Positions 21,567-60,978 are shown, counted from the stretch's first letter. The stretch: DNA of 64,000 bases from Vulcanimicrobiota bacterium (GCA_050250895.1 JBFWNU010000001.1:2948891-3012890); one strand, 5' to 3'. Notes: generated by a model not told the origin, from the sequence alone. Program-made: numbers and translations.

Positions 21567-21732
21567 TTGCGAAGCTTTGCGGTCGCTCCCGTATTCGCCT
21601 CCAACGACGAACGGATACTTGCCCGCGAGTCTTCGGAGAGGGGTTGAGCATCGAGCATCCGATGACAAGTCCTGGCGCGGAGGGACGGTAAAGTCGAACC
21701 AAGAACAAGAGCCTACGCAAGAAGGGGTTGTC

Positions 21733-25128: not shown

Positions 25129-25137
25129 GGAGAGCCA

Positions 25138-29760: not shown

Positions 29761-29919
29761 CCTAGTCGTTGATGCGTTGATGTGCTCGGGAAATACAGGA
29801 TGTTAGCAACGCTCTTAATTTGATCCACACAACGCTCAAAAGTGATCCACCCCCATACCGTTATCCGGAAACTGGAGTTGAAGAGACTTCAAGTCCCGGA
29901 GCAGGCATGCTGAAAGTGT

Positions 29920-31149: not shown

Positions 31150-33227
31150 CCGAACCCCGTCCGAGCGAGCGCAAAGGGAAATACCTCGTCACTTCCGTTC
31201 TGCAGGAGCAGCCAGGCTGCCACTGTGAAAGTCCACCGTGAATCGACCATATCATCGACCAGAAGAACCGGCCCCTCAGGTATATTGCCACACAGACCCA
31301 ATGCGCCGTCTAGATTTAGAGCCTGCATGGAGGAGTTCTTCATAGACTTCTGCTCCGGTCGTTCAGCAACCTGTTTGAACACAGGTTGAAAGGTTAAACC
31401 AATGTGCTTCGCAAGCCGCTCAGCGAAGTCGGGAACCAGAGTCGGATGTCGCGCTGAGGGGATACAAGTCACCCAGGTAGGGGATGGAACGGGCGCCCAG
31501 TCTTTGAGCATAGCCGCTGAAGCGGCTACAAGATCATCCGTGAACCGACGCTTTTGGTATTTTCCGTCCCGAACCAGCCGTCCCCAGCCAGCATCGCCCC
31601 AGACGCAGAGGGCTCTTCCTCCCTGCGCCCTTCGGTTCTGCGGGATTGGTCCGCTGACGGCGTAACTTGTGAGTCCGCCTGGCGGCCACTGCTTTCGTGG
31701 CTCAATGGGCACGTTTGTTCGACGCAGAAAGGCTTGGGCTTCTTGCACAAGAATCGGATCTGCTTCATCCGGCAGCGGTTGAAGGTTTGACGGGGTGACA
31801 ATCTCTGGCTCTCCGTCCAGCGCGCGAACGAGGAAATCCATATGGCCTGTCGTCAAATTCACATACTCCTGCATCTGGGCCTGTTCCTGATGCCTTAACT
31901 CTGTTAGTCGCTGCGCCCTATCCCAGAAGCTTTGCTCGAGGCGGGCGGGCGTAAGCTGCCATTTCGTTTCGAACTTTACAATGGGCGGTGGCGACTCGAG
32001 TGCTAGGAGGTCTAGCGTTTTCTCTATCCGGTTTCGGCCGACATTTGCGACTTTAAGCAGTTCGGGAACACTCAGCCCTTCAGGGCTTCGAGTAAGTGCG
32101 TTGACTACTTCCTCAGCTTCCTCGCTAGTTGGAAACGCAGACTCAATGAAGAAGTTGGTGATTTCGGTGTCTTCTTCGCCGCTGAGAAGCACACCGTAAG
32201 CCGATTTAAGTGCCCGACCAGCGCGGCCGACTTGCTGATAGTAGGCAACGACAGATCCCGGTGCTTGATAGTGGACGACAAAGGCGAGATCGGGCTTGTC
32301 AAATCCCATCCCGAGCGCCATGGTTGCGACCAGAGCCTTCACATCGTTTCCCATGAGCCTATTCTCGAGGTCAACCCGCGCGCTGCCCGATTTCCCCGTA
32401 TAAGCCTCAACAGGCAAACCCTGGCATTTCAGCCAGTCGGTCACCTGATGGGCGTCCCGGATTGTGAGAGTATAGATGATCCCGCTGCCGTCAATGTTAG
32501 GCAAGTGCTCAGCCAACCACGCGAGCCGCTCGGCTTGACCGGGCAAGATGATGGTTTGAAGGTGCAGGGACGGCCTGCCTAGGGGACCTCGGATCACCTC
32601 GAGTTGCGGCCCTAGAACGCTTCGCAAATCTTCCATCACTCGCGAATTCGCGGTAGCGGTAGTGGCTAACAAACGTAAGTTCTTGGGGAGATTCCCTATG
32701 ATCCTCTGGAGCAAGCGGTAATGTGGTCGAAAGTCGTGGCCCCAGTCTGAAACGCAGTGGGCTTCGTCAACGATCAAGAGCGATATGCGGGGCGCTAAAG
32801 ATGCAAGGACTCTTTCGCGAAAGCGCTCGCTTGACAGGCGTTCCGGCGAAATGAGGAGAATGTCGACAGAGTCGTTCGCGACGGCCGTCTCGACAGGGTC
32901 CCAGTCGCATTGATTTTCACTGTTGATGGTCTCAGCAAGGAGACCCATCCGGCGAGCCGCCTCGATTTGATTTCGCATCAATGCCAGCAATGGAGAGATG
33001 AGGATGGCCGGCCCGCACCCTGCTTCCCTGAGTAGTTTGGTGCCGATGAAATAGACAGAACTCTTGCCCCAGCCGGTTCTTTGAACGACCAACAATCGCC
33101 CCTTCCCCTCGACAGTATGGCGAATCGCGTCCTCTTGGCCGTGCCGGAACCAAGTGCCCGGCTGCTGTGTCGCCAAGCGAAGAAGTTCCGCAGCTCGCGC
33201 CGGATCGTAACGTATCTTGAACGACAT
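31146..33227 (-). CDS. RecQ-like helicase with C-terminal PRTase-like domain (RqlH-like)
   Basis: [42 protein letters not shown]; C-terminal [13 protein letters not shown]. Confidence 0.92.
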
Positions 33228-33447
33228 AGTTAGCCTCCACAGTCAACGCCTCCGACTCATACAACGCCAGTTCCCGCTGGGCTTGCCTCGTGGGCGGTCA
33301 GCGCCGGTCGTTGTCCCAGTTCCATCGGACGACGTGACATCTCGCAGCGAAGGGTTACGAGCCCCAGCGGAACGAATCTTTAACACAAGCGCCGACCGAA
33401 CCTCTTTGACGTGGAGGCCGCGACTCCCTGGACGGTCGAACGCCAGC

Positions 33448-33690
33448 CTATGGGTCTGAGGAGTGGCGCTCACCCTCCAGGTCGTTTCGAAGTCTGAGGA
33501 TAGTTCCGTGAGCCAAGTCTAACATGACTAATGCACAGCCACGGCAATACCCCTTCTCGACCCGCCCCTCTTTGACCAGCAGGACCAGGTCGCCCTTCAA
33601 GATTTGATGCGCTTTACTGTGATAGCACTTTCTTCTTCTACGGGCAGTCTGGATGGCTAGGGTCTTCAAAACGGCTTTGTGTCTAGCCAC
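33448..33690 (-). CDS. Small basic zinc-finger-like protein (PARP-ZnF-like pattern)
   Basis: TARRRRKCYHSKAHQILKGD...YCRGCA; GTG start overlaps the helicase end. Confidence 0.65.
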   Translation of the reverse strand: MARHKAVLKTLAIQTARRRRKCYHSKAHQILKGDLVLLVKEGRVEKGYCRGCALVMLDLAHGTILRLRNDLEGERHSSDP

Positions 33691-35881
33691 TGCCGTCCCT
33701 CAATTCGTACACAACCTGGTCAAGAATCTCGTCCATTCCGTCGTGCGCTTTCCTCAGCTCTTCTAGATCGAGGGAGTCGCGGTCATTCGCGTCGATGTCT
33801 AAAAAACGATTGACTGCGAGGTTCAAGAGCACAATCGCTGCAGCCAGATTGTCGCTGGCAGGCGTCCTCACTTTGCTGACGAGCTCTCTTCCCGGGACCT
33901 GGAGCCCGAGCCGATTCAGGAGTTCCTTCGCTGCCGAGCGAGTTCTTTCGTTGAGGCGTCGGCGGGCTTGCTGCCGCGCCCTCTGGGGTTGAACAGGCTG
34001 CGGGATGAACGGCACTACGCTTGCGGAGTCATTTGGTTCTGAGGCTCCCAACTGTCTCTCCAGGTCAGCTTGTGCGATCCCCAACTCCTCTGGGTCAAAA
34101 CCTTTTAGGCGGATTGTTCGAAAAAGGTCGTCTATCACTCGCTGTCGCTCCTCGACGCTGAGCGGTCGCCCGAGGTAGTGGTCCTGCACAAGAGAATCAA
34201 TAGTTTCGCTTACGACTTCGATGTCCGGCCGAAATCTGCGAACCTTTTTCGATGTACTTGAGGAGAATACTCGGGACCCGTTCGCGACTTCTTGGAGGAG
34301 ACTCCGGTCATCTTGGTCAAAGGATCTAAGCTCTTCCCACCAGCGATCGACATTCAACCCCAGGTGAGAAATAACGTAAGCTCGGTTATCCGGATGGCCA
34401 GGCTGCGCCTCTTTGATAACGCGCATCACTCGGCCTATAAACTGAATGTATGGAACAATGTGGCGGAAGGGGCGAAAAATCGCCGCGACACTTAGGTTGG
34501 GGTAGTCGGCACCTTCATTGAGGATAGAAACCTGGCAGATGACATCTAATTGGAGATTCTTGAGCGCTGCTCGGGTTCGACCCTGCTCTTCTTCCGTTTG
34601 CTTGCTGTGTAGGACTGCGGCCCGAAGGCCCCTTTCTTCGTAAAGAGAACGGATGGATTTCGCGTGGTCTATAGAGCAGGCGGCCGCTATGATTTGATGG
34701 TGAGCGGTTCCATCACTTCGCAATTCCCGCAAGCTCTGAATAGAAGCGTCAACGATGTGTTCGTTGCACTCACGGGAAAGAGCCACTCCTCGACTGAACC
34801 ACGTCGTCTCCTTCAACCTGACGACTTCGTCTATGCTGTACACTTTGCCCGGTTCATTGCTGGTGAACCGAAGTTCGGTTGGCGCGAGCCTTCGGCTGGC
34901 GATGTCTTTGATATAGCCCTCGCGGATCGCACTGGCAATTGGATAGCGATAGATGAGCTCTCCGTCGACGGGTTGCCCATCACTCCTGAGCGGAGTCGCC
35001 GTGAAACTTACAACCTTTGCCTTGGGAAAACGTGAAAGCGTCTCCTTCCAGGACGGCGCAGGGGCATGGTGCGCCTCATCCACAAGGATCAAATCAAAGT
35101 AGCGGGGGCCGAACCGATCCAGCCACTTTGCCCTCGTCGTCGCTAATTGCTGTATGTTTGCCAAAAGGATGTTGGCGCTATCACAATCGTGAATGTTTGC
35201 GTTCGGTTCGAGTACCGCCGTGGTCGGATGGCTCCCGTTCGCAAAGACGGCAGTCTTCTTCCAAAAGTTTTGCGTGTTTGATGCATCCATGGATTTCTGG
35301 ACCGTGCGCAGGATCTCAAGGTTGGGCACGATAACGAGAACCCTGCCCGACGAGATTTCGAACGGCATTAAAGCCATCGTTCCCGTCTTTCCGCATCCCA
35401 CGGGCAGTTGGATGATCGCAGGGCGCGCCCTCTCCCGAGAGAAATAGGATCGAGCGGCGTGATATGCAGCTTTTTGCGGCTTCCGTAGCTCATCGTTTCC
35501 GTCGATATTCACCCGGCTTGTTAGAAAGAGCTTATGTTTGTATTCTCGACCCAGTTCTGCAAGCATGGCTGCTATCCAGGCGTTGGCCGCTTCGGATTCC
35601 GAACATTCGAGGGCGAACTCGAGGACGCATCGTGCCTCAATTTTTCTGTCGGCGTCTATCAGGCAACTCGCTTGGCTGATTAGGTTGACAGAAGCGCGCT
35701 CGCCCCGACCATCAAGGAGAAGCAACTCTGCGATTTGTCCCTCTTTGGTGGCTACGTGGCTAGCCAGCCACCTGATGGCTCTCCGCGACCCGGCAGGATT
35801 GACCTTCATCGCCTCCAACTCGAGTAGGGACTGTGATTTCTCAGTCTTGAGTCGACGCAGTTCCAAGTCTTGCGGTCTCAT
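33683..35881 (-). CDS. SF2 (ResIII-like DEAH) helicase with N-terminal helical/TPR-like domain
   Basis: LPVGCGKT, DEAHH, FTATPLRSD, LNEGAD and QFIGRVMR motifs; ATG at 35881 overlaps the upstream TGA (ATGA). Confidence 0.88.
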   Translation of the reverse strand: MRPQDLELRRLKTEKSQSLLELEAMKVNPAGSRRAIRWLASHVATKEGQIAELLLLDGRGERASVNLISQASCLIDADRKIEARCVLEFALECSESEAANAWIAAMLAELGREYKHKLFLTSRVNIDGNDELRKPQKAAYHAARSYFSRERARPAIIQLPVGCGKTGTMALMPFEISSGRVLVIVPNLEILRTVQKSMDASNTQNFWKKTAVFANGSHPTTAVLEPNANIHDCDSANILLANIQQLATTRAKWLDRFGPRYFDLILVDEAHHAPAPSWKETLSRFPKAKVVSFTATPLRSDGQPVDGELIYRYPIASAIREGYIKDIASRRLAPTELRFTSNEPGKVYSIDEVVRLKETTWFSRGVALSRECNEHIVDASIQSLRELRSDGTAHHQIIAAACSIDHAKSIRSLYEERGLRAAVLHSKQTEEEQGRTRAALKNLQLDVICQVSILNEGADYPNLSVAAIFRPFRHIVPYIQFIGRVMRVIKEAQPGHPDNRAYVISHLGLNVDRWWEELRSFDQDDRSLLQEVANGSRVFSSSTSKKVRRFRPDIEVVSETIDSLVQDHYLGRPLSVEERQRVIDDLFRTIRLKGFDPEELGIAQADLERQLGASEPNDSASVVPFIPQPVQPQRARQQARRRLNERTRSAAKELLNRLGLQVPGRELVSKVRTPASDNLAAAIVLLNLAVNRFLDIDANDRDSLDLEELRKAHDGMDEILDQVVYELRDGSG

Positions 35882-36390
35882 TGGTAATACCAGAAGAATG
35901 CCCTGCAGTTCGAGAAATTCACCACACAAACAAACCCGGGCTTTTTGAAGGGGTTGGCTTGGAGTTGAGCACGCTTGGATTCCCGTAGGTTCTCGAGGTT
36001 GCCGTCTTGCGTTCCGCTGACCTCGAGCAGAATGTCATCGCCGAGCCAATAGTCCGCTCTTTCGCCTCGTCTCGTGACCTCAGTAAATTCGAGTTGCGCG
36101 AGGGTCGTCACCAATATGCAACTCAAGCCAAGCGCGGCGAACTCAGTAATGACACTGGTTTGGTAAGTCTTCTGACACCTTCGGTAGTCGTTGGCTAGTC
36201 CCGCCCACTGCAACTTGAAATTGCATAGGGTCGGTACAGAGCCCTGGGGTCGGTGATCTACAACCAACTCGCGATCTCCGTCGGTATAGTTCGAGTTCGC
36301 TAACAGGCGAATGACCAGAGGTGAACGCCAGTCGTCGGCCCGAATGTTTGGATGATGGCTCCCGAGCTGTTGAACATCGAATGTTGGCAT
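35878..36390 (-). CDS. Putative restriction-fold nuclease (D...EVSG variant)
   Basis: TEFAALG...RRGERADYWLG...LLEVSGT pattern; start at 36390 or 36474. Confidence 0.6.
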   Translation of the reverse strand: MPTFDVQQLGSHHPNIRADDWRSPLVIRLLANSNYTDGDRELVVDHRPQGSVPTLCNFKLQWAGLANDYRRCQKTYQTSVITEFAALGLSCILVTTLAQLEFTEVTRRGERADYWLGDDILLEVSGTQDGNLENLRESKRAQLQANPFKKPGFVCVVNFSNCRAFFWYYQ

Positions 36391-44853: not shown

Positions 44854-46383
<1,530 letters not shown>

Positions 46384-46485
46384 CTTGGCCCTGTTGGAGG
46401 CCCGACCGGTAGGGTCCTCCAACAGGAGAGGGGGCCCTCCGCCACAAACTCGCTTAGATACTGGAAAAAAGGGGCGGGAAAAGCC

Positions 46486-48516
46486 ATGCGTTGTAGGTCG
46501 TATCTCTTGGCGCTGCTGTTGCTTGTTTTGGCTGGATGCTCGGGCGGAGGCTCGAGCTCGGGCGGAGAGGCTTCGGCGGGACCGGGACCGGTCACGACCG
46601 GGCTGGCCTTGACGGTCCGATTGGCCCCCACGCCGCGGGTGCTGGCGCGCAACGGCTTGCCCGACCTGGTGCGGGTCGAGGTCTATGACTTACTCACCCG
46701 CACTCTGATCGCCCAGGGCCAGGCTGACGTTCCTGAAGGAGCCAGCCAGGTGAGCGTCTTCGTCGGCTCGGTGCCCCCCGGGCGCTTTCTGGTGGTGGCC
46801 AAGGGCGTTGACCTCAACGGCGTGCTGCTGCTGTCTTCGGGCGAACAAGAAGTCACGGTGGTGGCCGGGTCGACCACTTCCCTCACTCTGGTCCTGTCGA
46901 GCCTGAGCCCCAGCTTGCGCTTTGCCACCCAGCCGATGAGCGCGGTGGCCGGGGCGAATCTGGTTCCGGTCGTGGTCCAGGTACTCGATGCGGCCGGCAA
47001 TCTCGATACCACCGCGGCAGTGCCCGTTACGGTGGCTCTCAACGGCACTCCTGGAATGCTGGCCGGCACCCTCACCGTCACCAGCGTGGCTGGCGTGGCC
47101 GAGTTCAGCGACCTGAGCGTCAGCCAGGCGGGCAGCTACACGCTGACCGCCTCTGCCTCTGGCTACACTTCGGCCACCAGCCAGCTGTTTGCCATCTCGG
47201 TCACGGTCGGGCCTCCCGCCCAGCTGGCTTTCGTCACCCCACCCGGCAATGTCTCGGCCTTTGACACCATGTTACCGGTGGTAGTGGCGGTGCAAGACTC
47301 GAACGGGATTTTGGTGCCCACGGCCACCAATGCGGTCACCATCGCCCTGGCCTCCAACCCGGGTTCGTCGACCCTGGGAGGCACCCTCATGGTCAACGCG
47401 GTGGGCGGCCTGGCCACGTTTTCTGACTTGACCCTCGACATGGTCGGCTCGGGATACACCCTGATGGCATCCTCCCCGGGTCTCACCAGCATCACCAGCG
47501 GCAACTTCGACGTATCGCTGGCCCCCGGGGCCTTGACCCTGGTGGGCGTAGTGCCGGTGGGCAACCTCCCCAACTATCCCGATATGTCCAGCGACGGCAA
47601 GTTTCTCTACGTACCTCTGTTTAACGCCAATCAGGTCAAAGCTTATTCGGTGGATGCGGCCACGGGGGCCCTGACCGAGTTGACCAGCAGCCCTTACACC
47701 GGGTTCTCTAATCCGGCGGCGGCGGCCCTGACGCCCGACGGCAGTTCGCTGTTCATCTCTAACGCCTCGTCCGCGAGTGCCACCACTTTTAGCGTCAATA
47801 CCACCACCGGCGATCTCACCCTCACGGGCGCGGCGGGGACCGGCGGCAATCCGCTTCGCGGCGAGGTGACCCCCGACGGCAACTTCTTCTACGTCGCCAA
47901 CTTCGCTTCCCATACGCTGTCGGGTTATCACGTGTTGCCGGGCTCGATTCTATCCGAGTTGAGCACCTCGCCTGAGGCGGCCGCTGGCTTCGGCCCCGAC
48001 TCGCTGAGCATCCGGCCAGACGGCATGTTTTGCTACTCCTCCAACGGCAACGTCTACTCCATCAATACGGGCAACGGCGACCTGACCGAGATCGCCTCTT
48101 CGCCGTTTGCCAATGCGGTCGGCGAGCCCACCATGGACGCAACGGGAAACATCCTGTTCGCCTTTGACATCGGTCCCGGAACCTTAAAGACGTCGCTGCT
48201 CAATCCCATCACCGGAGTGCCTACCCTGGCGGCCTCCGTCACCACCACGGCCGGCGCCCTGGGCACGCCAGCGGTGGAAAGCTCGAACAAGTTCATCTAC
48301 GTCAGCGATTCGATCAACGCCAAGGTCTATGGCTTCCGGTTCGACAGCAGCGGCAACCTCACGCCGGTGCCGGGCTCGCCCTTTGACAGCGGGGGTGGTC
48401 CTGGCACCCAGCCGACCTACATCATCGCCCACCCCGGCGCCGACTTTCTCTACATCTTCAACCGGGGCACCAACGACATCAGCGTCTTCGCCATCAACAA
48501 TCCCCCGGGGGCCTGA
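46486..48516 (+). CDS. Lipoprotein with two Ig-like domains and a lactonase-type beta-propeller
   Basis: LAGC lipobox; repeated F.T.P...V.V.VQD...G.A.FSDL; TPDG.F.YVAN blades. Confidence 0.82.
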   Translation: MRCRSYLLALLLLVLAGCSGGGSSSGGEASAGPGPVTTGLALTVRLAPTPRVLARNGLPDLVRVEVYDLLTRTLIAQGQADVPEGASQVSVFVGSVPPGRFLVVAKGVDLNGVLLLSSGEQEVTVVAGSTTSLTLVLSSLSPSLRFATQPMSAVAGANLVPVVVQVLDAAGNLDTTAAVPVTVALNGTPGMLAGTLTVTSVAGVAEFSDLSVSQAGSYTLTASASGYTSATSQLFAISVTVGPPAQLAFVTPPGNVSAFDTMLPVVVAVQDSNGILVPTATNAVTIALASNPGSSTLGGTLMVNAVGGLATFSDLTLDMVGSGYTLMASSPGLTSITSGNFDVSLAPGALTLVGVVPVGNLPNYPDMSSDGKFLYVPLFNANQVKAYSVDAATGALTELTSSPYTGFSNPAAAALTPDGSSLFISNASSASATTFSVNTTTGDLTLTGAAGTGGNPLRGEVTPDGNFFYVANFASHTLSGYHVLPGSILSELSTSPEAAAGFGPDSLSIRPDGMFCYSSNGNVYSINTGNGDLTEIASSPFANAVGEPTMDATGNILFAFDIGPGTLKTSLLNPITGVPTLAASVTTTAGALGTPAVESSNKFIYVSDSINAKVYGFRFDSSGNLTPVPGSPFDSGGGPGTQPTYIIAHPGADFLYIFNRGTNDISVFAINNPPGA

Positions 48517-49626: not shown

Positions 49627-50065
49627 TCATCCATTTACCAGGAGCTTTACCGAGGCCGAACACAAGCAGTTCGAAGCCATCTGCAAGCGGGTCGAGTTCT
49701 TGCCCGGAACCTACCTCTTGCGCGAAGACCAACCATGCGATCGCTTTTATCTACTCGAGCGCGGTCTGGTCTCGATCGAGTTGCAGCGACCTGGCCGTGA
49801 GGTGCTGCGGTTGCAAACCGAGACGGGCGGCAGCGAAGTCGGTTGGTCGTGGTTGTTTGCGCCCTACCGGGCCACCTTTGATGTGAGGACGGTCGAGCTT
49901 TGCGAGGCCTACGCGGTCGAGGCCGCCGCCATGCGCAAACTAATGGAGGACGAGCCCGCCTTCGGTTTCAAGGCCATGCAGGCGCTGCTGCACACCATGG
50001 TCGAGCGGCTGATGCAGGCGCGATTGCAGTTGCTCGACATCCACTCGGTGGGGGAGACACCATGA
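49619..50065 (+). CDS. Cyclic nucleotide-binding domain protein
   Basis: FYLLERG.V, VGWSWL and RL..ARLQLLD motifs. Confidence 0.85.
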
Positions 50066-50871
50066 TCCCACGCACGTTCGAAGTCACCAGTCGGGTCCAG
50101 GACAATCCCGTCACTTACACCCTCGGGGCCCGGGCCGTCGAAGGCCCGCCCCTGGAGTTTTGCCCGGGGCAGTTCAACATGCTCTATGTCCACGGCAAAG
50201 GCGAGATTCCCATCTCGATTTCGGGTCCGGCCTACCAACCCGAGCAGTTGCTTCACACGGTCCAGGTGGTGGGGGCGGTCAGCCGGGCCTTCACCGAGCT
50301 CGAGCCGGGCCAGCGGTTCGGCGTGCGCGGGCCTTTCGGACGCGGCTGGCCGGTCGAGGCGGCCCGGGGTCATGACGTGTGCCTGATGGCGGGCGGGTTG
50401 GGGCTGGCTCCGCTGCGTCCGGTCATCTATGCGATCGCGGCCCAGCGCGAGCATTACGGGCGGGTGGTGGTGCTCTATGGCGCTCGCCAGACGGATCTGC
50501 TGCTCTTCCAGGCAGAGTTCGGCCAGTGGCCCGACATCGAGGTGATGGTCACCGTCGACATGGCCTCGCCGGGCTGGCACGGCCATATCGGCGTGGTCAC
50601 GGGCCTGTGCCGAGCCGCGTCGCGGCGATTGGATCTCTCCAGGGCCTACGCCATGGTGTGCGGACCGCCGGTGATGATGCGCTTTTCGGTGCGCGAACTG
50701 CTGCGCTGGGGAGCCGCCCCCGAGCGGGTTTTTCTCTCGGTCGAACGCAATATGCAGTGCGGCCTGGGAGTGTGCGGGCACTGTCAGTACGGCCCCTATT
50801 TCCTGTGTAAGGACGGTCCGGTGTTTTCTTACCAGGAGCTGCAGCCCTGGATGGAGGTGCGCGAGCTATGA
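50062..50871 (+). CDS. Group 3b hydrogenase gamma (FAD/NAD(P)-binding, 2Fe-2S) subunit
   Basis: [20 protein letters not shown] and [19 protein letters not shown] motifs. Confidence 0.9.
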
Positions 50872-51644
50872 AGCCAAGACTCGCCGTGTGGAAGTTCTCG
50901 TCATGTGACGGATGCCAGCTGTCGGTGCTCGACTGCGAAGACGAGTTGCTGGCCCTGGCCGGCCAGGTCGAGATTGCCTATTTTCTCGAGGCCACCAGCG
51001 CCAGCGCCCCCGGTCCCTACGACGTGTCGTTGGTCGAGGGCAGCATCTCGACTCCTCACGAAGAGGAGCTGATTCGCCAGGTGCGTTCGCAATCGAGCTT
51101 TCTGGCCACCATCGGAGCCTGCGCTACGGCCGGTGGCATCCAGGCTCTGCGCAACTTCGCCGAGGTGGACGAATTCATCAAGACCGTCTACGCCCACCCG
51201 GAGTACATCGAGACTCTGAGCGAATGCCATCCCATCTCGGACTATGTCAAGGTCGATTTCGAGCTGCGCGGCTGCCCCATCAACAAGCAGCAGTTGTTGG
51301 AACTGCTCAACGCCCTGCTGCACGGACGGCGTCCCAACATCCCGCCCCACAGCCTGTGTCATGAATGCAAGCGACGGGGGTTAGTGTGCGTCTCGGTAGC
51401 CCACGGAACTCCCTGTCTGGGCCCCGTGACCCAGGCCGGTTGCGGAGCGCTCTGCCCGGGTTGTAACCGGGGCTGCTACGGCTGCTTCGGACCGATGGAG
51501 ACTCCCAACACCGAGGCGCTGGCGCAGCGCTTGCGCCTGCAGGGCGTGAGCGACGGCGAGATGGTGCGGCTGTTCCGTAGCTTCAACGCCAACGCTCCCG
51601 AATTCAAGGAGGCAAGTCTTCGCCATGAATACCCGCATCATTAA
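50868..51644 (+). CDS. Group 3b hydrogenase small (delta) subunit
   Basis: SSCDGCQ, GACA, GCP and [20 protein letters not shown] motifs. Confidence 0.92.
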
Positions 51645-52911
51645 AGTCGACGCCCTGGCCCGGGTCGAAGGAGAGGGCGCCCTTCACGTCCGCCTGCGGG
51701 GCGACGAGATCGAGGAAGTCCGCTTTCGTATCTTCGAGCCGCCCAGGTTCTTCGAGGCCTTTCTGCGAGGTCGCGGCTATTTGGAAGTGCCCGATATCAC
51801 GGCCCGTATCTGCGGTATCTGCCCGGTGGCCTATCAGATGAGTTCGGTGCATGCCCTCGAGCAGGCTCTCGGTCTGGAAATGGGCGACGCCTATGTCGAC
51901 TTGCGCCGGCTGCTCTATTGTGGCGAGTGGATCGAAAGTCACGCCTTACACGTGCTGATGCTCCACGCTCCTGACTTTTTCAAGAAGGCCAGCGTGCTCG
52001 AACTGGCCGAGCTGTTTCCCGAAGTGGTAGCCCGGGGGTTGGCCCTCAAGAAGGCGGGCAATGCCCTGGTGGCCGCCGTGGGCGGGCGCGAGGTCCATCC
52101 CGTCAACGTGCGCGTGGGCGGCTTCTATCGCTCGCCCGACACCCTTCATACCCTCGTCCCACAGCTCGAGAAGGCCCGCGAGATCGCGGCCGAGCTGGTG
52201 GAGTGGGTGAGCGGGTTCGACTTTCCCGAGCTCGAGGTCGACTATGAATATGTCTCGCTCTTTCACCCCGACGAGTACCCCATGAATCGAGGCCGGATGG
52301 TCTCGAACAAGGGCCTCGACATCGCCGTGGAAGACTTCTTCGAGCACTTCCAGGAAGAGCACATCGAGCATTCCAACGCTCTCCACTGTCGCCGCCTGCC
52401 GGGGCTGACGAGCTATCAGGTGGGCCCCCTGGCTCGGGTCAATCTGGCTTTCGAGCAGCTCTCGCCCGCGGCCCGCGAACTGGCCCGTCAGCACGGTTTC
52501 GAGCCGCCCTGTCTCAATCCGTTCAAGAGCATCATCGCCCGGGCGGTCGAGACCTTTTATGCGGTCGATGAGGCCCTGCGCCTGATCACTTCTTACCAGC
52601 CACCCGCTCAGCCTTACCTCACCGCCCCCAACCGGGCCGGCGTGGGCCACGCCTGCACCGAGGCTCCCCGCGGGACCCTCTACCATCGCTACGAGGTCGA
52701 CGCCGAGGGACTGATCGTGAAGGCCGACATCGTGCCTCCCACTTCGCAGAACCAGGCCCAGATCGAAGACGACCTGCGACGACTCTTGCCCAGCTTGCTC
52801 GAACGCTCCGAAGACGAGATCCAGCATCGCTGCGAGCAGGCCATTCGCAACTATGACCCCTGCATCTCTTGTGCCACCCACTTTCTGAGGGTCGAACTCG
52901 AGCGGCTGTGA
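51625..52911 (+). CDS. Group 3b [NiFe]-hydrogenase large (alpha) subunit
   Basis: RVEGEG, RICGIC (L1) and DPCISCATH (L2) with a short cleavable tail. Confidence 0.95.
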
Positions 52912-53357
52912 TCGTCGGCATGGGAAATCCCTATCGCCGGGATGATGGGGTGGGGCCGACCATGCTCGAGCGCCTCGCGGACCTTCCCACCTATTTCTGC
53001 CAGGGCGACCCCCTCGGTTTGATGACCGTCCTCGATGACCACGGCACGGTGATCATCATCGACGCTGTGCTCGGGCCAGAGCCTGGGCGAGTGCATCGAT
53101 GGGAGTGGGGCCAGACGCCGCCGGAACTGCTGGCCAGTCGCTTGTCCAGCCACAGTTTGCCGCTGCTTAGCACCCTGCGGCTGATGGAACGACAGAATCG
53201 TCTGCCCGAGCATACTGTCGTCTACGCTGTCGAGGCCGAGGACTTCTCGATGGGAGTGGGCCTCTCGCCCGCGGTCGAGGCCGTGCTGCCTGAACTAGAG
53301 CGTTGTATTCGCCAGGAATTGACACGGTTTCTTCCCAAGTCTAGGGAGCATGAGTGA
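52908..53357 (+). CDS. Hydrogenase maturation protease
   Basis: GMGNPYRRDDGVG, IIDAV and SSH motifs. Confidence 0.92.
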   Translation: MIVGMGNPYRRDDGVGPTMLERLADLPTYFCQGDPLGLMTVLDDHGTVIIIDAVLGPEPGRVHRWEWGQTPPELLASRLSSHSLPLLSTLRLMERQNRLPEHTVVYAVEAEDFSMGVGLSPAVEAVLPELERCIRQELTRFLPKSREHE

Positions 53358-54618
53358 GCTAGAGGCATACCTCGCACGTCTGTCGGCCGGAGATAGCCTC
53401 GAGCCCGGCCGGTTTACCATCGACCTCGAGAGGGCCCGCCGACAGCTGCGCGAGCACCGCTCGGCCGAACCTGCCTTCTATCTGCTCAAGGTGTTCCAGG
53501 CCCTGGTAGCGGGCGGCGCCCTGCGCATCGACCTCCACCTCAACTTCGCCGGAGTGAGGATGGCGGCCGAGGTCGACGCAGGCAGCCTGCTTACCGATCA
53601 GGCCGAGTTGATGCGGGCCATCAGCGAGCCAGATCCTCACGGGGCGCTGCGCCACCTGGCCATCGGACTCGACGCCTGTGCCAGCCAGAGCGTGGGCTGG
53701 GGGGTATGGACCGACAGGTGGGGGTGGAGCCTTAGCCTGCGCGAAGACCAGCTCGAGACCCAGCAATTAACGGCCCAGCCGAGCTGGGCTAAAGAGGGAC
53801 ACTGGGTCGAATTTCGTCTGCAGCGGCGCAGCCTGGGTTCTCTGGCAGGATTGCTGAGCGAACGCAAGGCGGTCAGCGACCGCTGCCAGTATTGCCCGGT
53901 TCCGGTTCGCCTTGATGATGTCGAGCTACCATCGGGCTGGAGAGTTCCTGAGGGCGACGAGGACTTTCCTGGGTTTCACCTGGCCGAGCGCTACCTCTGC
54001 GAGCCTCGGGGACCGGTGGGCATGACGGTTCGCGAAGACCTCGCTCTGGTCACCCAGCGCGAAGCCATCCAGCCCCGCGAGGCTGCTACCACCTACCAGA
54101 TTCAGTTGGTCGGCGCCCAGCGAGGCGGGCGGTTGCGCTGCCGCATGGCGCTGGCCCTGCCTCACCCCCAGAAGGGTTCCGACCGGCTGACCGCCGTCAA
54201 GGCCGGAGTGACCACCATGCCTCACACCATCGCCGCCGAGGGTCGTGGCCTGGAGGTGGTGGTCGAGGGTGACCACCTCACCACCGACCTGTCCGAGTTC
54301 GGGCTAGTCGAGGACGAGGCCCTGGCCGAGACGGTGGCCGAGGCGGCCCGCCAGGCAGTGGCTATGATCGACGAGCTACAAGACGCTCTCGGTCAGCTGC
54401 CCCGGCATTACCACAGCGACGCGCCTGTCTTTATCACCCTCAACCTGAGCCTGGGCGTGCTTTTTCCTCTGCTCATCCCGGTGGGCCTTGGTGAGTGGAT
54501 CTATTCTCGCCGCCGCCAGGCCCGAATCGAGCGCGAGACGCCAGACTACCGGCTCCGGGTCGGCTCCGAACTCGAGCGCACGCGCGAGCACCTGAAGAAA
54601 CTGGTTGCGCCTGGGTAG
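53350..54618 (+). CDS. Degenerate GHKL-like family protein with C-terminal hydrophobic segment
   Basis: GRFTIDLERA...PAFYLLKVFQALVAGGA, HLAIGL and LTTDLSEFGLVED motifs. Confidence 0.7.
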   Translation: MSELEAYLARLSAGDSLEPGRFTIDLERARRQLREHRSAEPAFYLLKVFQALVAGGALRIDLHLNFAGVRMAAEVDAGSLLTDQAELMRAISEPDPHGALRHLAIGLDACASQSVGWGVWTDRWGWSLSLREDQLETQQLTAQPSWAKEGHWVEFRLQRRSLGSLAGLLSERKAVSDRCQYCPVPVRLDDVELPSGWRVPEGDEDFPGFHLAERYLCEPRGPVGMTVREDLALVTQREAIQPREAATTYQIQLVGAQRGGRLRCRMALALPHPQKGSDRLTAVKAGVTTMPHTIAAEGRGLEVVVEGDHLTTDLSEFGLVEDEALAETVAEAARQAVAMIDELQDALGQLPRHYHSDAPVFITLNLSLGVLFPLLIPVGLGEWIYSRRRQARIERETPDYRLRVGSELERTREHLKKLVAPG

Positions 54619-54705
54619 GACAAGAAAGAAGCCCAAGCAAGAGACTCCGGTGACAGGGGTTAGCTGTCGGGAGTCCTCACTTGAGCACCGAGGAGTCTAG
54701 TGGAT

Positions 54706-55428
54706 TCAGGCTCGAAGGAAGGGCGAAATGTCGTGGTCCGAGTCGGAAGGGTAGGCCTGGGTCACCGCAATCGGCGGGGGACCAATGGGAGGCTTGAAGC
54801 CACCGTCGTGGTCGGAGTCGGACGGGTAGGCCATGGTGGCGATGGGCGGGCCGCCGGGGCGAGGGCCGTTGTCGGTATCCGAGTCGGACGGGTAGGCCAT
54901 GGTGGCGATGGGCGGGCCGCCGGGGCGGGGTCCGTTGTCGTGGTCCGAGTCGGAAGGATAGGCCTGAGTGGTGGCGATGGGCGGGCCGCCGGGGCGGGGT
55001 CCGTTGTCGTGGTCGGAGTCGGAAGGATAGGCCTGAGTGGTGGCGATGGGCGGGCCGCCGGGGCGGGGTCCGTTGTCATGGTCCGAGTCGGAAGGATAGG
55101 CCTGAGTGGTGGCGATGGGCGGGCCGCCGGGGCGCGGACCGTTGTCGTGGTCGGAGTCGGAAGGATAGGCCTGGGTCACTGCGATGGGGGGGCGACCGAC
55201 CTTGTGCTGGTCTTCCAGAAAGCGGTTGAAGAACGGCGAGGGTGCGGGGGCGGGTTGGCCGCCGGCGAAGTCGCCCCAGCGACGACCCATCAGCTGGCTC
55301 GAGGCCAGCAGTTGCAGCAAGTCGGGCAGTCCGAAGGAGGGGGCGGCCGGAGCGCTAGCCGGCTGGGAGGGGAAAGGGTTGAAGGAAGGGACGTAGTTCT
55401 GGGCGGGTTGAAATCTCTGAATTTCCAC
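54706..55428 (-). CDS. Multi-core microviridin/marinostatin-like (graspetide) precursor peptide
   Basis: PFFNRFLEDQ leader motif followed by seven T(Q/M)AYPSDSD cores; GTG start with AGGAGAG RBS. Confidence 0.82.
   Translation of the reverse strand: MEIQRFQPAQNYVPSFNPFPSQPASAPAAPSFGLPDLLQLLASSQLMGRRWGDFAGGQPAPAPSPFFNRFLEDQHKVGRPPIAVTQAYPSDSDHDNGPRPGGPPIATTQAYPSDSDHDNGPRPGGPPIATTQAYPSDSDHDNGPRPGGPPIATTQAYPSDSDHDNGPRPGGPPIATMAYPSDSDTDNGPRPGGPPIATMAYPSDSDHDGGFKPPIGPPPIAVTQAYPSDSDHDISPFLRA
54728..55195 (-). repeat. Tandem 66-69-bp coding repeats encoding the core peptides
   Basis: GPRPGGPPIAT(TQ/M)AYPSDSD(H/T)DN units. Confidence 0.95.
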
Positions 55429-55555
55429 GGTTGTGCTCTCTCCTGCGGCTGGTTTTGTTGGGATCATCTTAGCGGGTGAGCTTCCACCGTTCTTCCAAAC
55501 GGGGACCCACATGTTACAAGAATGTGAAACTGTGGATCGCGCCGAACTCGATGGC

Positions 55556-56152
55556 ATGCGCTCGGGACTTATTCAACTGGTGATGGTTGGCCTCGCGGCG
55601 GCCGGATTGGGCTGGTGGTTTTCCCCTCCCCCCGCGAGCGATATCCAGATCGTCCAGCAGGGACGCCGTCAGACCGTTAGCCCCGGCGGGGTGATCCATC
55701 TTCGCCGGGGCCCGTTCAAATTGGTCTTTCCCTTGCGTGCCTATCATGACGGCGAGGCCAGTATTCGGGTCGCCGGCGCGGCCTCACCACCCCCCGATAT
55801 CGGTAGCGGAGGGCCCTTCACCGAGGACGAAACCTTCGGGGAAGCCCGTGGTCTAGCGGCAGCCGGTGAGTATGATCCGTTCTATCTAAGTTGGCAATGT
55901 CACCACTACGTCATCTATGCCCCACGAGAGCCCGACACCAGCCGCGCTACTCTCGAGCAGGACCTGGGTAAGGGGCTGTATCAGGTCAGCTGGACCATCA
56001 AGCACTTTGCCAGGTGGGAGATGGACAGCGACGATCAGCAACTGCTCGAGACCGTGCCCAATCTGTATGTGCGAATGCTCGACGACCGTGACACGGACGG
56101 AGTGATAGACCCTGGAGAAGTGGTGGATTTCGAGGTGCGCTGGGATGATTAG
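55556..56152 (+). CDS. Hypothetical membrane-anchored or exported protein
   Basis: N-terminal hydrophobic segment; C-terminal DRDTDGVIDPGE acidic, Ca-binding-like loop. Confidence 0.65.
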   Translation: MRSGLIQLVMVGLAAAGLGWWFSPPPASDIQIVQQGRRQTVSPGGVIHLRRGPFKLVFPLRAYHDGEASIRVAGAASPPPDIGSGGPFTEDETFGEARGLAAAGEYDPFYLSWQCHHYVIYAPREPDTSRATLEQDLGKGLYQVSWTIKHFARWEMDSDDQQLLETVPNLYVRMLDDRDTDGVIDPGEVVDFEVRWDD

Positions 56153-56705
56153 ATGGCTATTGTTGTTGCTGTTGTTGGTTCAGCCGGCGCTGGCCGACGT
56201 GCGTTTCAAGGCCAAAGGGGCGAGCTTTACGCTGGTGGCCGGCAAAGAGGCCAGCAAGTTCAAGCTCGTCGACGGCAAAGGCAAGACGGTGGCTACCTAC
56301 AAGCTCAAGAAAGACCTGGTGCTGGTCTCGGACGGACAGCACCAAGAGGTCTACAAGCTCAAGCGCAAGCCCGACGGTTTCGATGTGCGCGGACCCGACA
56401 GTAAAGCCAAGCGTCTCTATCTGTTTCGGCGCAAAGACAAGACCGACTGGAACATCGCTGATGGGCGCGAAGTGCGAGTGATGACCGTGAGATTGCGCAA
56501 AGGCGCCTACGAACTCGATGACAAGACGGTGAGCAAAGTTCGCCTGGTGGGCGACAAGCTGGCCTTCTTCGACAAAGCCGGCAAAAGCGCTGGCGAGTTG
56601 AGCGGCACCAAGGACCTCGAGGCCGGCACCTGGATGGGGGTCGGGCAGTTCGACCCCGCTTTGCGCGGCGCGCTGTTCCTCTATCTCTCCAAGGTTGACA
56701 ACTAG
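56145..56705 (+). CDS. Hypothetical secreted Lys-rich beta protein
   Basis: Signal peptide MIRWLLLLLLLVQPALA. Confidence 0.75.
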   Translation: MIRWLLLLLLLVQPALADVRFKAKGASFTLVAGKEASKFKLVDGKGKTVATYKLKKDLVLVSDGQHQEVYKLKRKPDGFDVRGPDSKAKRLYLFRRKDKTDWNIADGREVRVMTVRLRKGAYELDDKTVSKVRLVGDKLAFFDKAGKSAGELSGTKDLEAGTWMGVGQFDPALRGALFLYLSKVDN

Positions 56706-57856
56706 AACCTGCGGAGGGGCAGGCGCTCGAGGTGGCGGTGAGGACCGCTATCGGTGACGTAGAATGCCCGCCAGCGCACTGTCTCGAAATCGCTGACCAT
56801 TTCCAGGACTTGCTCCTTGAGCCACTCCATCCGCTCCTGAAAGGCCCTGTTCCTGACCAGGCCATAGCCTGAGGCGTCGGTGGTCAGGCCGTCGCTGGCG
56901 CAGACCCCGGTGACGCCCGGGCATCCCAGATCGAGACGAGCCACCTCGATCAGCAGGCCCCGTTTGACGAAGGCGATGGTGGCCTCGCCCAACAGGTCGT
57001 AGCGAATGGCCAGCATGGCTCGACAGAACTGGCCTTCTCCAGTCTTGCGCAGGAGCACGGTGTTGGCCCCATCGCGCAAGGTCAGATGGATTTCCGTGCG
57101 CTTTGGACAAAAGTCGGTCTCGGTCACCAGGTGCATGGGCCGGCGCGCCCTGGGGTCGGGCGCCTGAATGGCGGCGGTTGCGTCCAGGTCGGAGCTATAG
57201 ATGAAGCGCTCGACCAGATGGAAGTCGGCGCTAGGGTAGCTGGAGGCTGGACCGCGAGGGGCCCCCAGTGTCGGGACCTCGAGTCGCTTGCCATCCAGCC
57301 AGATGGGAATGGCTACATAGGCGAATCCCGTGGTGAGCATCCGATGTTCAGCGGCCCGCTCCCCAGCCCCGAAAAGCCGCTGCCACAACGCGGCCGGGCG
57401 CTGGCGCACCAGTCGAATGTAGAAGGCTTCACTCTTGTTCACCTGGCTCAGGGTGTTGGTCTGGCCCAACCGCAGTAGTTGGTTATGACCCAGGATCTCG
57501 ATGCCCTCGATCTGGGCGGCGAAGGCTGACGCCAGGCCGGTGGCCAGATCGCGCCAGCATCCCGAGGCGGCCAGAGGATTGGCCAGGGCGGGCTGGAGAG
57601 TGGCCAGAAAGTCGGGCGCGATGGGATGGGCTTCTACTAGCAGGTCGTGGCGGCCCAGTCGAACGTTGATGGCGGCCGTATGGAGCCCGACCAACCCCTG
57701 CAGGATCTTCTGCAGGTAATAGCCGGGTCGTTCGAGCTGGTAGTTGGCCAGTTTCTCGCGTGCTCGGATAAAGTCGAGAGTGAACGCGCCGGAGGAGTCG
57801 AGCTGTCCTTCCTCGCGCTTTGCTTTGAGCAAAGCCTCGAACTCGCGCCGACTCAT
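56702..57856 (-). CDS. Degenerate GHKL-like family protein
   Basis: EGQLDSSGAFTLD..RAREKL..YQL..PGYYLQKILQ, DLATGL and GLTTDAS motifs. Confidence 0.75.
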   Translation of the reverse strand: MSRREFEALLKAKREEGQLDSSGAFTLDFIRAREKLANYQLERPGYYLQKILQGLVGLHTAAINVRLGRHDLLVEAHPIAPDFLATLQPALANPLAASGCWRDLATGLASAFAAQIEGIEILGHNQLLRLGQTNTLSQVNKSEAFYIRLVRQRPAALWQRLFGAGERAAEHRMLTTGFAYVAIPIWLDGKRLEVPTLGAPRGPASSYPSADFHLVERFIYSSDLDATAAIQAPDPRARRPMHLVTETDFCPKRTEIHLTLRDGANTVLLRKTGEGQFCRAMLAIRYDLLGEATIAFVKRGLLIEVARLDLGCPGVTGVCASDGLTTDASGYGLVRNRAFQERMEWLKEQVLEMVSDFETVRWRAFYVTDSGPHRHLERLPLRRF

Positions 57857-57923
57857 GGGCTGCCTTTTCGCGTCAGGGCATTCCGGGCCCTTCGCAGGGG
57901 CGGTTGGCCGCGGCGCGAAGGCG

Positions 57924-59591
57924 ATGGTCTTGGCGGACTCACTAGCTCAATTCCTGGACCAGGCGCGCGCCTCTGGCAAGCTCGAGTCGACCGGCAGGTT
58001 CAGCCTCAACGTTGACCGGGCCAACCACCTGTTGCGGGACCTCCAACTGGCCGACCGCAGCTACTATCTGCTCAAGCTGGCTCAAGCGGGCGTGGTGGGC
58101 GAGGCCAGCTGGATTTCCTATCGTTTGAGCTACGATCGAGTGGAGATTTTTCTGCGCGGCGGAGACCTCGAGCTGTTTGATACCTCCGAGGTGCTGGCGG
58201 CCCTGACCCAACAGGAGGTCCTGCTGGGCGATTCGGCCCTGTCTCATCTGGCCGTTGGACTCAACGCCGCTCTGGCCACTCGACCCAACGCCGTGGAGTG
58301 GACCGTCTGGAACGCCTGGCGCCAGGAACGACTGCGCCTGGATGGGCAGGGAACGTCGCTCGAACGACTGCGCGAGGCGCCCTGGCAGGGAGGGCAGTCG
58401 GGCTACAGCCTGGTTCTGCATCGAAACCCACCGCCGCCTCCGCCTCCGCCCGAGGAGCCGACCTTTTGGGAGCGTCTCAAAGGCTGGGTCGAAGGCAAGG
58501 CGGTGCAAGCCGCCTCGGTCAGCGAAGAGCATCGGACCCTCTCGACCCGGCTGGCGTACTGCCCGATTCGGGTCGAGGTCGACGGGCGGGTGGTCAACGC
58601 CCCCGATCTGGGGGGCAACCGGACCAATCCCAGGAACCTTCATGAGTATGAAGTCTTTCTCCATTGTGGCGGACCCAATGTCCTGGCCTTTGCGCCCACG
58701 ACAGGCCGGGCCGAGGCGACCCGCTCCAGCGACCGCTTCGAGCGGGTCGGGACCACCTGGCGCAAATCGCTAGACAACGAGTGGCTGCGCGGTTGCCTGA
58801 TGGCGGCCGTTCCTTCTCGGGGCGGCGGCCTGGCCCAGGTCACCTTCGTTCACTTCGGGGTTAGCCTTGACCCGGTGACCGTCGACCTGCGTGCTCCGGG
58901 GGCGTTGGTGGTCTCGTCCACGGCCGGTCTTTCCACCGATCTTAGCCAGCGCTCGATCGCTCAGAATCAAGCCTTCGACCAGTGGACGGACGAGGTCGGC
59001 GAGTGGCTGTGGGGCACGCCTTCGACCGCCTTCCTGGTGCATCACACCGAGCCGGCGCCGCCCTACGCCAGCCTGGGTGACTTGCCGAAGGGCGACGAAT
59101 GGAGCCTGACCTTCGATAGCGACGGAGCGCCCAAGACCCTGCTCCATCCCAGCGGAACCTCGCTTTCCTTTTCGCCGGCTCGATTGCAGGTGCCGCCGGG
59201 CCGCTGGCCTTTGGCGCCTCCCCAGAGCCTCACTCCCCGTCGTTGGCGCGAGTGGCTGGCCGGTGCCCTGCGCTGCCTGGCCGATGGGGGCCGGGTGCGC
59301 ATTACTCATCACTTTCTCAAGGGGCCTTACGTCGAGGAGGGCGACGGAGTCCTGGCTCGGTTCGAGAACGATCATCTGGTCTATCTGGCGGTCCATCGCG
59401 ACGGCCGGCCGGCGGGCTGGATCCTCGAGCTTCGCGAACCCCACCAGGGACAGGTCAGCCACGTAACCTCCACGTGGGATGAACGTTATTCCAATGGCGA
59501 AGTCATCCAGGGCGAGACCCACCTGCCGAAGATCTGGTCCGAGTGGGTCGAGGCCTGGATCGAGGCAGTCTACCGCGACACCCAGCTTTAG
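57924..59591 (+). CDS. Degenerate GHKL-like family protein with C-terminal extension
   Basis: SGKLESTGRFSLN...YYLLKLAQAGV, HLAVGLNAAL, YCPI.V.VDG and GLSTDLS motifs. Confidence 0.75.
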   Translation: MVLADSLAQFLDQARASGKLESTGRFSLNVDRANHLLRDLQLADRSYYLLKLAQAGVVGEASWISYRLSYDRVEIFLRGGDLELFDTSEVLAALTQQEVLLGDSALSHLAVGLNAALATRPNAVEWTVWNAWRQERLRLDGQGTSLERLREAPWQGGQSGYSLVLHRNPPPPPPPPEEPTFWERLKGWVEGKAVQAASVSEEHRTLSTRLAYCPIRVEVDGRVVNAPDLGGNRTNPRNLHEYEVFLHCGGPNVLAFAPTTGRAEATRSSDRFERVGTTWRKSLDNEWLRGCLMAAVPSRGGGLAQVTFVHFGVSLDPVTVDLRAPGALVVSSTAGLSTDLSQRSIAQNQAFDQWTDEVGEWLWGTPSTAFLVHHTEPAPPYASLGDLPKGDEWSLTFDSDGAPKTLLHPSGTSLSFSPARLQVPPGRWPLAPPQSLTPRRWREWLAGALRCLADGGRVRITHHFLKGPYVEEGDGVLARFENDHLVYLAVHRDGRPAGWILELREPHQGQVSHVTSTWDERYSNGEVIQGETHLPKIWSEWVEAWIEAVYRDTQL

Positions 59592-59622
59592 GTCGTCCTT
59601 GCCGGTAGTCAAAGGGGGTTAC

Positions 59623-60978
59623 TTGAGCGATGGCGAAATCGTCAGAGTGAACGAGTCTGACCCGCTCCCAGCGGAGAACGCTGAAGAACTCCCTCCCGAC
59701 CCTCCTGAACCTCCCCGGGCGCCGCCCTTCTTCGGGCCGCTGCGCGCTTTGCTAGCCTTTCTCGTCTATCAGTTCAGCTTCATTATGGGCGGCTTCGCGG
59801 TGGGTTTCGCCTATGGCATCAAGCTGGCCATCGACGGGGCCACGTCCTTCGAAAACACCCCCGAGTTGACGACCGTGCTCCACCCCTGGGTGCTGCTGGT
59901 GGGGGGACCTCTGGGAACCGTGATGTTGGGGCTCTATCTCTATCTGAGCTTACAGGGCGACCTGGCGCGCCTGGGCATGGTGGTGGCCGAACGGGCTCAC
60001 CTGATCAAGGCCGGGTTGATGGGAGCAGTGTTGGGCGGGGGGTTTTCGTGGTGGTCGCACCACACGGCTCCCAAGCCCGATTTCGAGCCGGGACCGCTGG
60101 TTCAGATGGCCACCTCCTCATCGATGGGTCAAACCGCCTGGCTGGTGATGGCCCTGCTGGTCGCCCCCATTGCCGAAGAGCTTCTCTTTCGCGGAGCCAT
60201 CTTCGAGGGGTTGAAGGCGCGACTGACGGCTTATCCTTCGGCCATCATCGTGACGATTCTGTTCTCGTTGCTGCACCTGGGCGAGACGGGCGGGCACTGG
60301 CCAGCCGTGCTGAGTGTGACGCTGCTGGGGGTGGTGCTGATGGCCCTGCGTTTACACACCGGCTCACTCTGGCCGTCGATGGTTTGCCACTTCTGCTACA
60401 ACCTGGCCCTGGCCCTCACTTTCTTGCTATTGACAGGGCCTCTGGCCGGTCCTCGGGTGAAAGCCATGCGGGCCGTCCAGGCGGGTGAGAAAGAGCAGGC
60501 TCTGGTCTATCTCGAGAAGGCTATCGCGGCCGAACCCCAGGACGGCAATCTCTACGCCCTGCGCGGACAGCTCAAAGCCAAGCTGAATCGATTGGATGGG
60601 GCCATGGAGGATTTCGACCGGGCCCTCGAACTGGGCGTGCCCAAGCCCAGAATCCTCAACGAGAAGGCCTATTTCCTGGCCACCGCCGGCCGCTACGAAG
60701 AAGCCCTCGAGCCGGCTCGCGAAGCGGCCAGACTATCCCCCGAGTCAGCCAACGTGCAGGACACGCTGGCCTACACCCTGGCCGGGATGAAGCGTTACGA
60801 CGAAGCCCTCGAGGTCTATGAACTGGCCCTCGAGCTCGATCCGGACCACGCTTATGCGCACTACGGCCGGGGGCTGGTATATCGCGAGCTAGGGCGGACT
60901 GATGAGGCCGAGGTCGAGGTTGAGGTGGGCCTGGAGCTCGACCCCTCTTTGCAAGAAGAGTGGGTTGACTGGAAGTAG
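59623..60978 (+). CDS. CPBP (CAAX protease-like) intramembrane metalloprotease with C-terminal TPR repeats
   Basis: EELLFRG, FSLLH and HFCYN motifs; several TM helices; TPRs. Start uncertain (59623 or 59647). Confidence 0.88.

Follow-up and report, generated by a model that had tools for sequence, protein, structure and literature searches.

A seven-core, lysine-less marinostatin-type graspetide precursor in a Vulcanimicrobiota bacterium, predicted to be esterified in trans by an unlinked ligase

The window analysed here, a 64,000-nucleotide stretch of a Vulcanimicrobiota genome, carries on its minus strand a gene for a putative ribosomal peptide precursor with seven cores. We estimate a probability of roughly 70% that it encodes a genuine multi-core group-1 graspetide precursor of the lysine-less marinostatin type, whose cores would be esterified in trans into serine-protease inhibitors by a ligase encoded on contig 13. 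The ORF of about 240 aa, the PFFNRFL motif at 55216-55236 and the five TQAYPSDSD and two TMAYPSDSD cores given in a preliminary description of this DNA were all confirmed at the same positions. The features of the gene are as follows.

55440..55444, minus strand: Shine-Dalgarno-like AGGAG, 11-nt spacer to GTG 55428
54706..55428, minus strand: precursor gene, 240 aa from GTG 55428, stop at 54706-54708, matched by NF033738 and PF12559
55237..55428, minus strand: N-terminal leader extension, residues 1-64, typical of Xenobia-clade precursors
55261..55290, minus strand: second conserved leader element, L47..W51..G56, from an alignment of 12 leaders
55207..55236, minus strand: leader recognition motif PFFNRFLEDQ, its role taken from work on MdnA/MdnC (accessible part of PMC7823629)
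55150..55176, minus strand: core 1, TQAYPSDSD
55081..55107, minus strand: core 2, TQAYPSDSD
55012..55038, minus strand: core 3, TQAYPSDSD
54943..54969, minus strand: core 4, TQAYPSDSD
54877..54903, minus strand: core 5, TMAYPSDSD
54811..54837, minus strand: core 6, TMAYPSDSD
54736..54762, minus strand: core 7, TQAYPSDSD
54805..55173, minus strand: tandem array, 69-bp (23-aa) unit of core plus Pro/Gly linker (HDNGPRPGGPPIA); 5.4 copies with 93% matches in Tandem Repeats Finder
54628..54648, minus strand: terminator-like stem-loop with T-rich tail, 58 nt past the stop, from a consensus scan alone

The open frame spans 54706-55557, extending 5' to an ATG at 55557, and contains further in-frame starts at ATG 55512, ATG 55467 and GTG 55428. 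The last of these, also the start in the preliminary description, is most likely the correct one, because it is preceded by AGGAG at a spacing of 11 nt and because the N-terminus it predicts, MEIQRFQP, aligns with the Met starts of homologues (MQIHSNAVRPFQP in locus L015). GC3 is 0.76 in this frame and 0.64 and 0.60 in the other two, and pairwise comparison of the codons of the seven YPSDSD hexapeptides gives 40 synonymous and 0 non-synonymous differences. On this codon evidence the frame is coding, intact and under purifying selection. A 259-aa ORF on the opposite strand (54700-55479, plus) is a by-product of the GC-rich repeat. Comparison of window positions 50000-60000 with four relatives at the DNA level returned two short matches only, and no syntenic ortholog could therefore be placed in those four.

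Assignment of the gene to the microviridin/marinostatin family, as first suggested from the raw sequence, is borne out by two curated models. NF033738 (NCBIfam, microviridin/marinostatin family) scores the precursor at 68.7 bits against a cut-off of 26, and PF12559 (Pfam, Inhibitor_I10) at 33 bits against a cut-off of 21; NCBI's model would name the gene automatically. In the whole genome, 134,347 six-frame ORFs reach 40 aa or more, and a PFFxxF leader with at least two YPSDx[DE] cores occurs in only 3 of them, so that, judged as a sequence pattern, the combination of leader and cores is far beyond chance. A protein database search that scored 8000 candidates gave only 10 relatives at E <= 1e-5, with identities of 51-53% for the best of them. 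The chain could in principle be an unmodified Pro/Gly/Asp-rich repeat protein that resembles microviridin cores, a reading with which the length of 240 aa, the low-complexity linkers and the lack of biosynthetic neighbours would agree. We regard this as extremely improbable in view of the full-length leader motif, the nine-residue cores and the two family models passed, and because the same architecture adjoins ligases in dozens of loci.

All seven cores fit the pattern T-x-x-[YF]-P-S-D-x-[DE], with the donor Thr and Ser and the acceptor Asp in register. Marinostatin, a bicyclic diester inhibitor of subtilisin from marine Alteromonas, is closed by Thr3-Asp9 and Ser8-Asp11 esters and has its reactive site at Met4-Arg5; its acidic acceptors form an Asp-x-Asp arrangement, as do those of the cores described here. 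Position 3 is Ala in 7/7 cores, whereas tricyclic microviridins carry the lactam-forming Lys there. Neither this lysine nor the second ligase, of MdnB/MvdC type, by which a tricyclic microviridin sensu stricto is recognised was found. As far as the accessible part of PMC7823629 describes it, the marinostatin precursor has a PFFxRFL-type leader, and the absence of MdnB is linked to marinostatin-type products. The window precursor thus resembles marinostatin in its T-x-x-Y-P-S-D-S-D core without the lactam Lys, its PFFxRFL-type leader, a single ligase without MdnB and two expected ester rings. It differs in carrying seven cores on a 240-aa chain, in a gene that is unlinked, in a leader about 65 aa longer and in P1-P1' pairs that would be Gln-Ala or Met-Ala.

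In the sections of PMC7823629 available, MdnC is described as binding a helix motif in the MdnA leader. The corresponding PFF motif is strongly conserved in the clade: its P, F, F, L and Q residues are invariant in 12/12 aligned leaders. So is Trp51, 14 residues before PFF, which is also invariant in a second, closer alignment, and Leu47 and Gly56 are near-invariant among the same 12 leaders. The extension of about 65 aa before the motif had been called unusual. This is true relative to loci of Bacteroidota and Burkholderiales, where PFF starts 4-15 residues after the Met, but not within the Xenobia clade, where a PFF start 65-85 residues in is the rule. The extension could be a second recognition, export or solubility element. 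In two lysine-less precursors, that at L099:4894-5313 (minus; G006:C181) and protein P0011, the long N-terminal extension is replaced by a twin-arginine-like signal, ..RRRFL.. and then a hydrophobic stretch, which stands directly before PFF. These two sequences hint that some relatives may export the peptide by the Tat route after its cyclisation.

The ligase ORF lies at C13:33060-34052 (L009:10061-11053), on contig 13 of the 9.5-Mb genome. TIGR04184 (MvdD) matches it over C13:33072-34028 with 393.6 bits, which is under the equivalog cut-off of 475, a value that the ligases of 41 related genomes do not exceed either (0/41). The MvdD pre-ATP-grasp domain, PF21068, scores 103.7 bits (cut-off 27), its sole match in the genome. 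Of the solved relatives, 5ig9 is closest (294 bits), followed by CdnC (7mgv, 245 bits) and 5ig8 (212 bits). Contig 13 belongs to the same genome as the window gene: its composition matches (GC 0.64 vs 0.627, tetranucleotide r = 0.96), and four members of an 87-copy, genome-specific paralogue family lie on it. A genome search with TIGR04185 (MvdC) returned nothing beyond the contig-13 ORF, at 249 bits against a cut-off of 425, and weak hits on contig 2. There is therefore no second, amide-forming (MdnB/MvdC) ligase in the genome, which fits the lysine-less cores.

The window had been described as free of ATP-grasp ligases and transporters, and this holds on a wider scale for the former: ligase model searches found no ATP-grasp gene on the whole of contig C1 (3.9 Mb), which holds the window, and no transporter family matched any of the 47 window ORFs scanned (of 54 chosen). 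A precursor adjoining its ligase, the mark of a graspetide cluster, is accordingly absent from the window locus. The label 'orphan' given to the gene has nevertheless to be dropped; it is merely unlinked, and contig 13 carries both a cognate-type ligase and a paralogous precursor. The preliminary description had named the lack of a graspetide ligase in the genome or close relatives as a refutation. This does not apply, because the genome has one ligase and ligase model matches at E <= 1e-40 occur in 17/41 related genomes overall. Maturation in trans, as the preliminary description had proposed, would therefore be the natural reading of the sequences.

Contig C2 holds, at about 878.7-881.5 kb (L011:8716-11463), genes for an ATP-grasp maturase and a degenerate ATP-grasp. 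Beside them lies a K/E/T-rich ORF of 319 aa, which contains 4.5 copies of a 96-bp repeat and may encode a multi-repeat precursor. This cluster is probably a separate, graspetide-like system. The maturase-like gene (C2:878733-879623) reaches 149.6 bits with TIGR04187 (cut-off 350) and 107 bits with TIGR04184, and the contig-2 ATP-grasp pair, or an unrecognised ligase, might in principle mature the window precursor instead of the contig-13 enzyme. We consider this very unlikely: the contig-2 gene has no PF21068 match, its MvdD/MvdC scores are 3-4 times below those of the contig-13 ligase, and the repeat ORF that it adjoins looks like a substrate of its own.

A motif scan of the same six-frame ORFs, following the suggestion that further PFFxRFL-type precursors be sought in the genome, identified two. 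One, with five cores (TMAYPSDSD x3 and TLRYPSDSD x2) and the leader motif PFFERFLEDQ, lies on contig 13 (L009:11786-12430, minus), convergent with the ligase and with its 3' end about 0.7 kb from the ligase 3' end. A 223-aa ORF is found between the two genes and an EamA transporter gene upstream; neither has a counterpart in the relatives' loci. The other paralogue, with four TLRYPSDSD cores and the leader motif PFFNNFLEGQ, is located at C1:2826510-2827130, 176 kb from the window gene. All three precursors pass NF033738 (68.7, 61.1 and 57.7 bits) and together provide 16 cores with three P1-P1' pairs (Gln-Ala, Met-Ala and Leu-Arg). The window gene and the ligase-linked gene have the core TMAYPSDSDHD in common, and the three leaders share P-F-F-x-x-F-L-E-x-Q and the upstream Trp at an identity of 37-44% between the window leader and its paralogues (44% to the ligase-linked one). 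An upstream motif of 11 nt (<=1 mismatch) common to all three genes was not found.

The nearest relatives of the contig-13 ligase come from Vulcanimicrobiota, Candidatus Eremiobacteraeota and Candidatus Xenobia MAGs, at 54-65% identity. Their loci were found by an alignment-based contig scan; a single ligase protein as query found nothing. NF033738 matches were obtained in 9/41 related genomes (including the source genome), and in a sample of 201 genomes of the phylum the same 9 matched, all in two families. Both figures are lower bounds, because the model has false negatives: it misses precursors in G001, G035 and G040 that were found by regular expression or by eye.

The 61 named loci divide into 45 with two ligases and 16 with one, some of the latter being cut by contig ends. 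The ligase complement goes together with the core type: a precursor was detected in 40 two-ligase loci, 39 of which have TxK cores exclusively, and in seven one-ligase loci, of which five have only lysine-less cores and two are mixed. A quick IQ-TREE search with SH-aLRT support on 109 ligase sequences splits the two ligase types with support 100, and the contig-13 ligase falls on the C-type (MdnC/MvdD) side, as sister to L015 (G013; support 99). It belongs to a nine-row group (support 93) in which 9/9 rows come from one-ligase loci and 6/6 rows with a detected precursor have lysine-less cores. This association and the tree support two esters and no lactam. The bicyclic, marinostatin-like cores predicted earlier are thus indirectly supported by the single MdnC/MvdD-type ligase, the lack of an MdnB/MvdC-type enzyme and the placement in a lysine-less ligase group.

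Multi-core precursors are the rule in the clade, where L040, L042 and L049 have 15-17 cores and L017 has 20. Among the 61 named loci, which come from many phyla, 13 have a precursor with more than five cores. Loci with 15-20 tandem lysine-bearing cores beside two ligases (L017 (G022:C143), L040, L042, L049 and L053) come from Eremiobacterota MAGs and one Mariniblastus (Planctomycetota) MAG.

The arrangement of the closest relatives bears on the standing of the window gene. A metagenome scan for precursors, with the closer leader alignment as query, identified L106 and L107 as the nearest; they have the same leader and the cores TQAYPSDSD x2, TMAYPSDSD x2 and TMAFPSDSD x1, and one ligase gene follows immediately downstream. 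Of the 15 closest metagenome loci, 11 include a ligase (one weak) and the other four end at contig edges. Proximity to a ligase is thus the usual arrangement, from which the window gene departs as a dispersed copy. Unlinked copies are also found in a sister genus (g4), of which four genomes have an orthologous precursor with 6-9 cores and no ligase within the 10.5-19.8 kb around it (L097:9688-10428, L098:8866-9885, L100:9634-10554 and L101:8479-9333). Their chains mix lysine-less (TQAYPSDNE, TMAYPSDNE) and lysine-bearing (TAKYPSDNE, TEKYPSDNE, TMKFPSDQE) cores.

Since the nearest relatives (L106-L109) are ligase-linked, the window copy could be a redundant, relocated duplicate: a family member by descent that is not, or barely, expressed and matured, and that persists through recent duplication and not through function. 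The near-identical DNA of cores 1-4, which implies recent tandem duplication, points the same way, as does G001 of the same genus, where no counterpart was found and a two-ligase cluster has a different precursor. Among sequencing runs, none of RNA was listed for this stretch, which speaks neither for nor against its expression, and five DNA runs had small shares (0.05-0.09). We nevertheless hold such redundancy to be unlikely. The 240-codon frame is intact and is flanked by the Shine-Dalgarno-like site and the terminator-like hairpin, the key leader positions are all conserved in spite of the low identity to the paralogues, the core codons differ only synonymously, and unlinked precursors are conserved across the four sister-genus genomes.

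The precursor has no constant companion genes: in the window ORFs and the relatives' loci, no conserved protease, acetyltransferase or transporter was found to accompany it, and a genome search for the C39 peptidase (PF03412) gave a single match, which lies on contig 7, away from all precursor and ligase genes. Two peptidase genes lie in the vicinity: 4 kb away, an intramembrane protease of CPBP (Rce1-like) type with fused TPR repeats (59479-60978, plus), and 8 kb away, an M28 peptidase (44857-46689, minus); neither is conserved near precursors in relatives. Type II secretion/type IV pilus-like genes, encoding a T2SSF platform protein and pilin-like proteins (PilX_N or N-methyl motifs), occur within a few kb of the ligase both on contig 13 (L009:2166-5520) and in one Vulcanimicrobiota MAG (L049:6015-9875), which could be chance. 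The genome-specific family mentioned above is GHKL/MutL-like, with 87 paralogues (jackhmmer, E < 1e-8) and no Pfam match; its structure-atlas matches are Vulcanimicrobiota-specific clusters with a predicted HATPase_c_3-like fold (TM 0.5-0.57). Copies are found in the window at 3856-5499 (plus), 53350-54618 (plus), 56702-57856 (minus) and 57744-59591 (plus), three of them flanking the precursor, and at L009:8695-10098 (plus), directly upstream of the contig-13 ligase. They were considered as partner proteins of the graspetide system and rejected: the adjacency is probably coincidental, because the genome has 87 copies and the relatives' loci have only 5 such ORFs (L001, L024, L034 x2 and L049).

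Elsewhere in the window, 16631-36034 is a defence island with a GmrSD-like nuclease carrying a Schlafen/AlbA_2 domain (16631-18958), the R, M and S subunits of a type I restriction-modification system (21160-28094), and DUF6602, a DprA-like protein and two helicases (29923-36034). A stand-alone AMP-binding/PP-binding/NAD_binding_4 protein (10971-13889, plus) resembles a carboxylic acid reductase or a single NRPS-like module.

We propose that the contig-13 ligase acts on the window precursor in trans, by binding its PFFNRFLEDQ helix. By analogy with AMdnC of Anabaena, which the accessible part of PMC5934393 describes as forming two lactones per core and as acting distributively on a three-core substrate, the ligase would work distributively through the seven cores. 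In each core the omega-ester Thr1-Asp7 would form first and Ser6-Asp9 second, giving 14 dehydrations in all. No lactam would form, because the cores have no Lys and the genome has no MdnB-type ligase. Each bicyclic core is predicted to inhibit serine proteases through a canonical loop, in which P1 would be the residue that follows Thr: Gln in five cores and Met in the other two. It is about equally probable that the linkers are cut to release seven peptides and that the chain stays whole as a multi-headed inhibitor.

Several known systems share parts of this arrangement. Chryseoviridin (CdnA/CdnC), from Chryseobacterium, belongs to a different phylum and has short leaders; it is likewise a multicore group-1 graspetide, and its ligase CdnC is the second-best solved relative of the contig-13 enzyme. 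Prochlorosins are made by one lanthipeptide synthetase that serves many dispersed precursor genes, in which the leader is conserved and the cores vary. The logic of one enzyme for several unlinked precursors may be the same here, by analogy only, since the chemistry and the enzyme class are different. Ahmed et al. (2017) defined class II microviridin precursors as having up to five cores, according to the summary in the accessible part of PMC7823629. As in AMdnA/AMdnC, one leader is followed by tandem cores in the window precursor; unlike in class II microviridins, there are seven cores, no Lys, no MdnB and no lactam, no C39-peptidase transporter lies nearby, and the gene is located away from the ligase. 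Plesiocin, a group-2 graspetide, has four repeated bicyclic motifs and a potency that rises with motif number, according to the part of PMC13097080 available. Its repeated motifs on one chain, which jointly inhibit a protease, may serve as a precedent for an uncleaved multi-headed inhibitor, although its core motif, hairpin ring topology and ligase family are unrelated.

A broader model can be put forward tentatively, as possible but short of probable. One MdnC-type ligase would serve a dispersed, prochlorosin-like set of three unlinked multi-core precursors with their 16 cores, guided by a clade-specific two-part leader that combines an amphipathic stretch ending in the invariant Trp with the PFF helix. 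The products would be uncleaved, 'beads-on-a-string' multi-headed bicyclic inhibitors, spaced by rigid Pro-rich linkers.

Much of the underlying biochemistry is already published, namely multi-core precursors (class II, up to five), marinostatin-type systems with a single ligase, and distributive processing, and the window gene leaves the understanding of graspetide biosynthesis unchanged. The new elements are modest: the phylum, the core count (published counts may already include such cases), the unlinked position together with two paralogues, and the clade-specific leader. Our literature searches found no paper pairing Eremiobacter with graspetide or microviridin, and nothing related for graspetide and orphan precursor.

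The gene adds the Eremiobacterota (class Xenobia), a phylum with almost no cultured members, to the producers of microviridin/marinostatin-type inhibitors. Multi-core precursors in public data go well beyond five cores, with seven here and 20 in L017, and precursor genes can sit far from the ligase, where neighbourhood-based mining tools do not look. If a single ligase does serve a dispersed set, graspetide mining would systematically miss unlinked precursors, which recur in the sister genus, because it looks only around ligases. The three precursors form a natural panel of 16 predicted bicyclic cores with three P1-P1' pairs in a one-enzyme system, which could aid the construction of protease-inhibitor libraries.
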